The notes under the pieces were generated by a model, which saw nothing but the letters and a program-made list of their open reading frames with translations, did no database searches and had not been told where the DNA came from. From a virus (Duplodnaviria; Caudoviricetes), in IMG/VR virus record IMGVR_UViG_3300021197_001319, positions 1 to 60,226 of that record: a DNA stretch of 60,226 nt; one strand, written 5' to 3'. The position numbers and the translations under genes are program-made. This document shows, piece by piece, positions 55,232 through 56,522 of this stretch; positions within the stretch are counted from its first letter, which is position 1; each line of letters opens with the position of its first letter.

Positions 55232-55959
55232 ACGACTTTACAAGTATCATTAAAGATGCTATAATTAATCGTACTATGGAAACTAAAGACTACACATGTC
55301 AGTACTGTGGCAAATCCTATCGCAAGGAAAGCACACTTGCTGCACATCTTTGTGAACCAAAGCGTAGAGCACAACAAGAAAATGAAAGCGGAGTAAAACT
55401 GGGCATGACTGCTTACTTACGCTTTTATGAACTTACACAGGGCAGTGCTAAATTTAAGACTTATGCAGACTTTAGTGCAAGTGCATACTACAATGCATTT
55501 GTAAAGTTTGGTAGACACATGGTAAACATTCGTGCTATTAACACTAGTAAGTTTATTGACTGGGTAATCCGGAGCAATAAGAAACTGGACTACTGGTGTA
55601 AGGATGCAGTGTATCAAGAATACTTGATGGAACATTTGCGCAAAGAAGCAACACAGGATGCACTGGAGCGTAGTATAAAGACCATGGAAGCATGGGCAGA
55701 AGAAAAAGAGAGTGTGTTCAATCATTACTTTCGCTATGTAAATGGCAATGTGCTGGTGCGAGATATAACCACAGGACGTATCAGCGCATGGATTGTGTTT
55801 AACTGTGACAGTGGACAACAAGCACTGGACAATCTAAGCACAGAACAAATAGAAATGATATTTCCATATATTGATCCAGACTATTGGAAGCGCAAGTTTG
55901 TAGACTACTTTGCAGACACAGAATGGGTAAAGCATATATTGAAAGAGGCAGGACTGTAA
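55228..55959 (+). CDS. Protein with N-terminal C2H2/C2HC-type zinc finger
   Basis: YTCQYCGKSYRKESTLAAHLC. Confidence 0.7.
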   Translation: MNDFTSIIKDAIINRTMETKDYTCQYCGKSYRKESTLAAHLCEPKRRAQQENESGVKLGMTAYLRFYELTQGSAKFKTYADFSASAYYNAFVKFGRHMVNIRAINTSKFIDWVIRSNKKLDYWCKDAVYQEYLMEHLRKEATQDALERSIKTMEAWAEEKESVFNHYFRYVNGNVLVRDITTGRISAWIVFNCDSGQQALDNLSTEQIEMIFPYIDPDYWKRKFVDYFADTEWVKHILKEAGL

Positions 55960-56522
55960 TGTATGATATGCCAGATGTAGACATTGACTTTGCTGATCGT
56001 ACACAGTTATTAAAACATGTGCAGGGTACGGGCGCAAGACTTGAAAATGGTAATAAACACAATACAGGTGTTTATTTTAACCGTATACCTGTAGCACATG
56101 ATGGACTAGCAACACTGGATCATAAACGTGCAGAGGAACTGGGCTACTTTAAACTGGACTTGCTTAATGTTAGTGTATATGAACATGTACGCAACGAACT
56201 ACACTTAGTAGAACTTATGCGTGAACCTAACTGGGCACTGTTGCAACAACGAGATTTCTTTGAACAACTTATTCATGTTAGCAAACACTTTGAAACAGCG
56301 GCTCGCATGCCAGAGGATATTACAAGTATACCTCGAATGGCTATGTTTCTTGCTGTGATACGTCCTGCTAAAAGACATCTTATAGGAAAAACATGGACAG
56401 AAGTTGCACAAACTGTATGGGATGCAGGACAGGATAGTTATAGTTTTAAGAAAAGCCACAGTGTTGCCTATGCACAACTTGTAGCAGTACACATGAATAT
56501 ATTGGAGGAAGCCAATGACTAA
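55959..56522 (+). CDS. dnaE: Miniature DnaE (Pol III alpha, family C) catalytic-core protein, 187 aa
   Basis: MPDVDIDF, HNTGVY, GYFKLDLL, AVIRP, YSFKKSHSVAYA. Confidence 0.85.
   Translation: MYDMPDVDIDFADRTQLLKHVQGTGARLENGNKHNTGVYFNRIPVAHDGLATLDHKRAEELGYFKLDLLNVSVYEHVRNELHLVELMREPNWALLQQRDFFEQLIHVSKHFETAARMPEDITSIPRMAMFLAVIRPAKRHLIGKTWTEVAQTVWDAGQDSYSFKKSHSVAYAQLVAVHMNILEEAND

Follow-up and report, generated by a model that had tools for sequence, protein, structure and literature searches.

A 187-residue relative of DnaE from an uncultured phage lineage as the probable C-terminal half of a minimal, split DNA polymerase III alpha

An intact ORF that carries the motifs of bacterial DnaE in only 187 residues raises the question of whether so small a protein is a polymerase in its own right, one part of a larger enzyme, or debris. 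The ORF lies at positions 55959 to 56522 (+ strand) of a 60,226-nucleotide phage sequence, called the window below, which is the whole of IMG/VR record IMGVR_UViG_3300021197_001319 and is a fragment estimated to be 17% complete. A preliminary description had regarded the product as a minimal Pol-beta-fold nucleotidyltransferase. That view stood in part: the protein is a DnaE-derived piece of the Pol-beta fold, but it is not complete in itself, because the palm piece with the GRGS sequence is a separate gene in its complete relatives. As argued below, the ORF very probably encodes the C-terminal (Mg2+- and template/dNTP-binding) subunit, here termed the C-half, of a two-subunit “minimal, split” C-family nucleotidyltransferase like that of the Rak2-like (group 2.2) jumbo phages.

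Translation of the frame at 55959–56522 (+) is free of stops. Numbered from the ATG at 55959, all five of the DnaE motifs previously assigned to this ORF were found in the correct order: MPDVDIDF at residues 4 to 11, HNTGVY at 34 to 39, GYFKLDLL at 62 to 69, AVIRP at 132 to 136, and YSFKKSHSVAYA at 161 to 172. The first corresponds to E. coli MPDFDVDF, whose aspartates we take to be D401 and D403 of the alpha subunit. One base is common to the start ATG and the stop codon of the upstream zinc-finger gene (TAATG), in agreement with the proposed translational coupling, and the sequence AAAGAGG is located ~12 nt 5′ of the ATG. An alternative TTG start at 55884 would lengthen the reading frame; as annotated here, the ORF starts 5 residues ahead of DxD. 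Because homologues begin within 1 to 5 residues of PDxD, we place the start either at 55959 or at the ATG at codon 4. At the other end, the ATG of a candidate 93-aa ORF (ATGACTAA) overlaps the stop of the 187-aa ORF, and in the relatives Phosso, vB_Pa-PAC2 (PAC2), and Turkey3 the genes next after the C-half sit on the opposite strand.

The residues expected to matter for catalysis are strongly conserved. Across 77 representatives, D6, D8, K65, D67, R135, and P136 are invariant, with conservation of at least 90% at D10, H34, G37, K138, K164, and H167. Nine residues were also checked in the window ORF and its close relatives and proved identical in 20/20 sequences. The three catalytic aspartates (D6, D8, and D67) are thus retained as originally claimed. 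All of the corresponding codons are on the + strand: D6-V-D8-I-D10, the DxDxD strand, at 55974–55988; K65-L-D67, the third carboxylate strand, which aligns with E. coli K553/D555, at 56151–56159; R135-P136, the finger “RP” motif, which aligns with E. coli R639-P640, at 56361–56366; and K164-K-S-H167, the finger “KKSH” motif, which aligns with E. coli NKSH 757–760, at 56448–56459.

Selection and family size both bear on whether the ORF is a working gene. Pairwise dN/dS values (Nei-Gojobori method, custom script) are 0.07 to 0.22 against 19 IMG/VR relatives with ~70 to 95% amino-acid identity. A near-length search recovered 4,898 clusters (90% identity) of C-half homologues at E ≤ 1e-3, which reduce to 354 representatives at 50% identity, and full-length members are nearly all 183 to 216 aa long. 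The window copy is 30 to 46% identical to cultured-phage copies and up to 95% identical to copies on IMG/VR contigs. By tblastn, the C-half occurs in 96 phage records, all from jumbo-phage groups (Rak2/121Q/PBECO4/GAP32/CBB, PA5oct-like, Atu_ph07, Phosso, and others), and several of these records are already annotated “DNA polymerase III alpha.” To judge from these coding sequences, the gene is functional and under purifying selection and, as had been supposed from its intact frame, is not debris.

The sequence relationship to DnaE is clear at the level of families. PHROG family phrog_11778 (“DNA polymerase”) matches the ORF over its full length (E 4.1e-51; residues 6 to 184 on profile positions 8 to 193 of 197), and its last 35 residues are matched by long PolIII-alpha PHROGs as well. 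We built an HMM (profile A1) from 77 diverse homologues with 29 to 56% identity to the window ORF. All nine of its matches in the PDB at E ≤ 1 are PolIII alpha chains (best E 1.5e-5), and the window ORF is recovered reciprocally at E 7.6e-68. HMMER places profile positions 54 to 140 on E. coli alpha 538–641, which takes in K553 and D555 (KFD) and R639-P640, and positions 151 to 180 on 739–769, which takes in NKSH 757–760; a weak aligned stretch covers E. coli MPDFDVDF. The ORF itself has no Pfam match even at E ≤ 10, PF07733 and PF17657 included, and sub-threshold stretches of PF17657 appear in the orthologues of 2/3 relatives. The family profile was needed because the only PDB match of the single sequence in phmmer, fermitin at E 0.08, is a chance hit. 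Megablast of window positions 54000 to 58000 against phages returned no match. The 187-aa ORF is a true relative of DnaE, with a likeness beyond chance.

The predicted fold leads to the same assignment. An AlphaFold2 model of the 187-aa protein, computed from the family alignment, has a pLDDT of 96.1 and a pTM of 0.89. In a Foldseek search of the PDB, ranks 1 to 11 are all PolIII alpha (TM 0.42 to 0.48, normalized to the query), with a best E of 1.7e-3 and hence no match at E ≤ 0.001; these rows were accepted only jointly with a second look by VIA-align and the sequence profile. VIA-align ranks C-family polymerases in positions 1 to 13 (Z 9.8 to 6.4, rmsd 3.0 to 4.2 Å), and the first unrelated fold follows at Z 3.7. 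A comparison of this kind had been proposed as a check, and the palm-domain fold is present. In these superpositions, 179 to 184 of the 187 residues of the model align, spanning E. coli alpha 397–780. Therefore, the protein corresponds to a segment of DnaE that begins at the DxD strand and closes with the conserved finger core. Relative to DnaE, the thumb and most of the finger insertions are deleted in the modeled chain, and about half of the matched span is gone. This agrees with the earlier statement that the PHP, thumb, clamp-binding, and OB parts are absent.

If the chain begins at the DxD strand, the palm piece that precedes this strand in DnaE must be accounted for. The preliminary description had treated the ORF as self-contained. 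Instead, we found this part of DnaE encoded elsewhere, as the other half of a split gene, in 5/5 complete relatives. A PF07733 search of Phosso, vB_Pa-PAC2, and Turkey3, the three relatives with complete genomes in GenBank, gave one match each, distant from the C-half, covering profile positions ~16 to 97 and ending at the C-terminus of a separate ORF of 169 to 177 aa. The same separate gene, here termed the N-half, is present in the complete IMG/VR relatives G002 and G003, and across all five its product is 168 to 177 aa long. It belongs to phrog_11127 and is labeled “DnaE-like” or “DNA-pol3-alpha domain” in GenBank. The two halves are 32 to 44 kb apart in Turkey3, PAC2, G002, and G003 and ~224 kb apart in Phosso. 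N-half proteins end in ...WGxGRGSS...(L/F)D(I/V/F)xEFL(K/N), and because this ending directly precedes PDFDVDF in DnaE, the split falls exactly at the first residues of the window ORF.

The N-half holds what the C-half is missing. The minimal core of a Pol-beta-like nucleotidyltransferase comprises hG[GS], [DE]x[DE], and a third carboxylate in one chain; the hG[GS] triphosphate-binding loop and the strand ahead of DxD are defining parts of it. WGxGRGSS is invariant in the alignments of the N-half partners, and its GRGS is the hG[GS] NTP-binding loop, for which the window ORF has no counterpart in its chain. The N-half family comprises at least 7,969 clusters (90% identity) among 8,000 candidates scored. 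By tblastn, N-half matches occur in 98 phage records, including a few full-length DnaE matches in Bacillus phages. Among the nine genera common to the rows listed for both halves and their tallies, the genus counts are equal for eight, the exception being Klebsiella, with 10 N-half and 11 C-half records.

Further evidence that the halves belong together comes from a natural fusion. A 375-aa protein (P0188) carries phrog_11127 at residues 8 to 180 and phrog_11778 at residues 190 to 374 in colinear order; PF07733 spans the junction of the halves, and GRGS precedes DxD. It is the only longer form among the 150 C-half representatives listed. A word-index search for longer homologues returned none at E ≤ 0.001 among 562 candidates and missed this 375-aa fusion, a false negative.

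Complex prediction paired the window protein with the N-half of G002, each chain with its own alignment; the C-half that G002 itself encodes is 60% identical to the window protein. The prediction gave an ipSAE of 0.91 in three runs, against 0.00 as the best of 3 in the controls; this predicted docking may merely mimic single-chain DnaE structures known to the model, and so reflect likeness and not binding. In calibration, the mark was attained by 58/80 solved complexes and 2/110 mismatched pairs. At least 96% of contacts are shared between runs, and the partner has a pLDDT of at least 82. Partner residues 133 to 135, in the strand before GRGS, are predicted to pair with residues 9 to 11 of the window protein.

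The N-half was also sought in the lineage of the window itself. None was found in the 60-kb window by PF07733, by protein, or by HMM over six-frame ORFs. Likewise, a six-frame HMM search found none in G001, a 131-kb contig whose C-half is 79% identical to that of the window and which extends from −63 to +68 kb around the gene; its best match to the N-half HMM is a 565-aa DnaE at E 0.007. The N-half was seen in 0/42 fragmentary close relatives. All relatives without a visible N-half are fragments of 1 to 38% completeness. Compared with the complete G002, the gene order of G001 has been rearranged, and the genes that adjoin the N-half in G002 (GroES and others) have no homologue in G001 or the window. 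Because the order is rearranged and these neighbors are missing as well, the absence of the N-half from G001 is uninformative. On the pattern of the complete relatives, an N-half partner is presumed for the window's own lineage.

From these results, we infer how the two halves might assemble, act, and serve the phage. The C-half would supply the second and later Pol-beta-like palm strands with the metal-binding D6, D8, and D67, together with a collapsed remnant of the DnaE finger (K65, R135-P136, and K164..H167). The counterparts of these finger residues in DnaE lie in its dNTP/template-binding region. The C-half would hold the two metals and contact the dNTP and template via this remnant, and the separate ~170-aa N-half would contribute the first palm strand and the GRGS loop, holding the dNTP triphosphate. 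By completing one Pol-beta-like beta-sheet, the halves would form an enzyme of ~40 kDa that has neither a PHP domain nor thumb, clamp-binding, or OB domains. Such a pair is likely distributive because it would have no thumb, clamp-binding motif, or proofreading domain, and since the thumb is absent, it may not bind duplex DNA or synthesize from a template. At ~355 aa, even the pair is drastically reduced compared to DnaE, and thus “miniature DnaE” is a fair name for the pair but not for the 187-aa ORF alone.

The likeliest job for this enzyme would be short-patch, low-processivity templated DNA synthesis in aid of a family B replicase. If the enzyme is active, primer extension or short gap filling would be our guess, one that we consider about as apt to be wrong as right. 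The earlier expectation that the lineage uses a family B polymerase was borne out in 5/5 complete relatives; none was found in the window or on the contigs of the 131-kb and 35-kb relatives. An assisting role is suggested by the conserved place of the C-half gene between those for the clamp-loader small subunit and the primase-helicase.

The genes that surround the ORF in the window include the three neighbors named in the preliminary description, which were confirmed and lie on the + strand. At 54788–55231 is a gp62-like gene (phrog_11758) homologous to one that is listed in Turkey3 as “sliding-clamp-loader small subunit” and in PAC2 as “coil containing protein.” It is followed by the translationally coupled C2H2 zinc-finger gene (55228–55959; phrog_11058), immediately upstream of the C-half. 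Family phrog_11058 occurs in 92 phage records from the same phage groups as the C-half and is located 0 to 1.1 kb upstream of it wherever both coordinates are listed; a functional tie between the two proteins is conjecture. A DnaG/T4 gp61-type primase (Toprim; 58989–59948) is the conserved downstream neighbor, and between it and the C-half are two small reverse-strand genes and then a BppU-like/structural-like gene. Farther upstream, a UvsW-like SF2 helicase (50803–52260, + strand) is a conserved part of the same replication/recombination module. This T4-like module order is the same in Phosso, PAC2, and Turkey3, where DnaB comes next; in the window, DnaB would fall outside the end. The comparison of selection and synteny across relatives that had been called for speaks for a maintained gene in a conserved setting. 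We also compared the 147-aa and 102-aa ORFs of the window with a 229-aa ORF of L048 and found them unrelated.

Could the 187-aa protein alone be a working Pol-beta-fold nucleotidyltransferase? It has all three carboxylates and the finger motifs, it is predicted to fold confidently by itself, and no N-half was seen in the window, the 131-kb relative, or the 42 fragmentary relatives. However, its chain begins at the DxD strand and so has neither the preceding strand nor the hG[GS] loop, and every complete relative encodes the GRGS loop, which is invariant, in a separate gene. The natural fusion and the predicted docking also argue against self-sufficiency, and every record without a partner is a fragment. 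We therefore judge a stand-alone polymerase very unlikely. A decaying remnant, or half of a full-length dnaE interrupted by an intein or frameshift, has a precedent in the intein-split DnaE genes known in cyanobacteria, but here the chance is negligible and the idea is effectively refuted. The low dN/dS values, the thousands of equal-length homologues, and the 32 to 224 kb between the halves all oppose it, and the PHP domain (PF02811) was found in 0/3 complete GenBank relatives, with 14/14 control genomes positive. Because only 3 to 5 residues precede PDxD across the family and the N-half stops right after ...EFLK, there is no room for intein halves; nor does the ORF contain any Pfam domain, inteins included, and the N-halves carry none beyond PF07733.

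Other alternatives accept the family as real and differ on what it does. Many small Pol-beta-fold enzymes are not polymerases, and the DnaE parts that hold the primer-template (thumb, clamp-binding, and OB) are absent, so that the pair might be an active heterodimer that, like other Pol-beta-fold families, adds tails without a template or makes nucleotide signals, or else a non-enzymatic replisome scaffold. Outside the palm, though, exactly the finger core of DnaE has been retained, R135-P136 being invariant and KKSH conserved, and there would be little reason to keep these motifs without a DnaE-like substrate geometry. In all relatives examined, the gene is embedded among clamp-loader, primase, and helicase genes, and the invariant carboxylates speak against a purely structural role. 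On balance, this group of explanations is improbable. A somewhat less remote, though still unlikely, proposal concerns the lineage of the window. A contiguous 565-aa DnaE-like gene, which lies next to DnaB in relatives of the window phage, is present in 25/42 fragmentary close relatives. The lineage might thus possess three polymerases (family B, the 565-aa PHP-less DnaE, and the split mini-PolIII as a Pol-alpha-like primer extender), in which case the mini enzyme, encoded between the clamp-loader subunit and the primase, may hand RNA primers over to the replicase; or it might have lost the N-half, in which case the C-half may work with another protein, for instance the zinc-finger product of the translationally coupled gene upstream. 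The two-subunit split enzyme is the reading that we adopt in what follows.

The family is already known, having been published in 2021 and labeled in PHROGs and GenBank. The suspicion that similar small proteins had been noted in jumbo-phage surveys proved correct: the passages of Iyer, Anantharaman, Krishnan, Burroughs & Aravind (2021, Viruses 13:63, PMC7824862) that deal with group 2.2 jumbo phages describe a “minimal, split PolIII alpha” in phages that also have a family B polymerase. According to these passages, no other PolIII domains occur in phages that carry the minimal version, the enzyme might cooperate with the family B enzyme in one-strand synthesis or repair, and it is proposed to model the catalytic module of the ancestral PolIII. 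Before that, a PolIII alpha subunit had been annotated in Atu_ph07 and Rak2-like phages, as stated in the relevant part of Attai et al. 2018 (PMC6102473), and one cluster of marine jumbo phages is marked by PF07733 according to the corresponding part of Weinheimer and Aylward 2022 (PMC9123017). Our search of the full-text literature found no biochemical, genetic, or other experimental study of the split enzyme, and in the PA5oct omics paper it found no passage on the split-PolIII genes.

The supposed novel miniature DnaE is thus a member of a published family, and the 187-aa ORF is only half of the enzyme. The system is nonetheless of interest as a natural experiment in which a C-family polymerase has shrunk to ~355 residues that are encoded in two parts far apart on the genome. 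Purifying selection maintains the split mini-PolIII in some of the largest phages, which also have a family B replicase, and both of its halves are abundant in metagenomes.

Four known systems help to place the protein. In bacterial DnaE (E. coli 2hnh/5fku, T. aquaticus 2hpi/3e0d, and M. tuberculosis 5lew/7pu7), the palm strands with the three aspartates are homologous to those of the window protein, and KxD, RP, and (N/K)KSH follow in the same order. DnaE, however, is ~1,160 aa long compared to 187 aa here, and the ORF has no PHP, thumb, clamp-binding, OB, or tau-binding parts. Approximately half of the matched 384-residue span is deleted and nothing is retained past E. coli 780. In relatives of the window phage, the N-terminal part of the palm is made as a protein of its own. 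Pol beta and other family X enzymes are a functional analogy: the pair would have a similar total size (~40 kDa), Pol-beta-fold two-metal chemistry, and a plausible short-gap or primer-extension role. Homology to them goes no further than the palm superfamily, the pair has no 8-kDa or lyase domain, and no sequence or fold match to these enzymes was returned by the profile, Foldseek, or VIA-align.

The PHP-less phage DnaE-like polymerases (phrog_405 and relatives, such as the 565-aa protein) are, like the C-half, phage-borne, reduced, and of the C family, and the 565-aa protein has the PDVDIDF, KxD, and RP motifs in common with the window ORF. It differs in carrying a full PF07733 palm and thumb (E 6e-43) and a finger domain (E 9e-14) in one chain, and its similarity to the window ORF is marginal (BLASTP E 0.003). 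The closest counterpart is the split PolIII alpha of group 2.2 jumbo phages (PHROGs 11778 and 11127). Two differences concern the setting: the N-half is not on the window fragment, and close relatives of the window also carry the contiguous 565-aa gene, which does not feature in the group 2.2 passages of Iyer et al. 2021. The window ORF belongs to the same family over its full length and, as in those passages, is a stand-alone C-terminal Mg2+/template-binding subdomain that occurs in the same phage groups and in the same setting beside T4-like replication genes. Nothing essential differs between the two, and the window copy represents this split enzyme in an uncultured lineage.

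Close relatives of the window phage carry, in addition to the 187-aa mini-DnaE half (window 55959-56522, + strand; the C-terminal subunit of a split minimal PolIII alpha), a contiguous gene for a 565-aa DnaE-like protein that has no PHP domain. This gene occupies positions 1438-3135 (+ strand) of L101, a stretch of one relative's DNA, and the same gene is found at 17555-19252 (- strand) of a second such stretch, L048. Its product gives a full PF07733 match (E 6e-43) as well as a match to the finger domain (E 9e-14). The gene is present in 25 of the 42 fragmentary relatives, including both relatives that share 95% identity on the mini-DnaE half. 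Because close relatives also hold this contiguous gene, there are two different reduced C-family polymerase systems in the lineage of the window phage.

The gene order in close relatives is primase, a radical-SAM-like gene, DnaB, and then the 565-aa DnaE-like gene on the opposite strand. In the window phage itself, the gene is expected just past the 3' end of the window, at about 61.3 kb if the window's numbering is continued. It is missing from G002 and G003, relatives that are complete but more distant, and a search of these two genomes returned only the N-half, which is the separately encoded, GRGS-bearing palm subunit of about 170 aa. A comparison of G002 with G001, a 131-kb relative, indicates that genome rearrangement has occurred within this phage group, since the two are colinear over about 106-145 kb, whereas the block corresponding to 150-161 kb of G002 sits on the other side in G001, and approximately 41 kb of G001 is nearly without a counterpart (one weak match) in the part of G002 that was compared (115 kb).

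The replication module of the window is interrupted by two radical-SAM-type genes. The first (53328-54500, + strand; PF04055, E 2e-10) has the phrog_11279 gene on one side and the clamp-loader small-subunit homologue on the other. The second (59941-60213, + strand), which directly follows the primase gene and reaches the end region of the window, is a candidate based only on a CxxxCxxC-like N-terminus. No radical-SAM-type gene is annotated at either corresponding place in Phosso, PAC2, or Turkey3, the three complete GenBank relatives.

Small GDSL/SGNH-like (DUF6071-like) paralogues, whose N-termini resemble GCSF(T/G), are also dispersed across this module. Three of these, all on the + strand (49664-50191, 50169-50828, and 58335-58988), were assigned through Pfam, where most matches of the group fall below the curated cut-offs. 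The fourth (52260-52889, + strand) has no Pfam match and was placed with the group by eye from its N-terminus. Other genes are listed at these sites in the three GenBank relatives examined.

A 93-aa ORF (56515-56796, + strand) overlaps the stop of the mini-DnaE gene by 8 nt (ATGACTAA). A family search with this ORF gave no significant match, and the ORFs listed for L048 between the mini-DnaE gene and the next reverse-strand genes include none of at least 90 aa on the + strand. The ORF may be lineage specific or else not a gene.

The two halves of the split polymerase also exist as a natural single chain. In the 375-aa metagenome protein P0188, a linker of about 10 residues joins the N-half to the C-half to form a minimal PolIII alpha. 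This protein, which was overlooked by a length-restricted search for longer homologues, is the sole fused form among the 150 representatives listed. In Stenotrophomonas phage CM1 and Xanthomonas phage XacN1 (OP883945.1, AP018399.1), the N-half and the zinc-finger neighbour (phrog_11058) share a strand and are only about 3-4 kb apart. Given this proximity, the halves in these two phages, where the position of the C-half falls outside the listed matches, may be separated by far less than the 32-224 kb found elsewhere.
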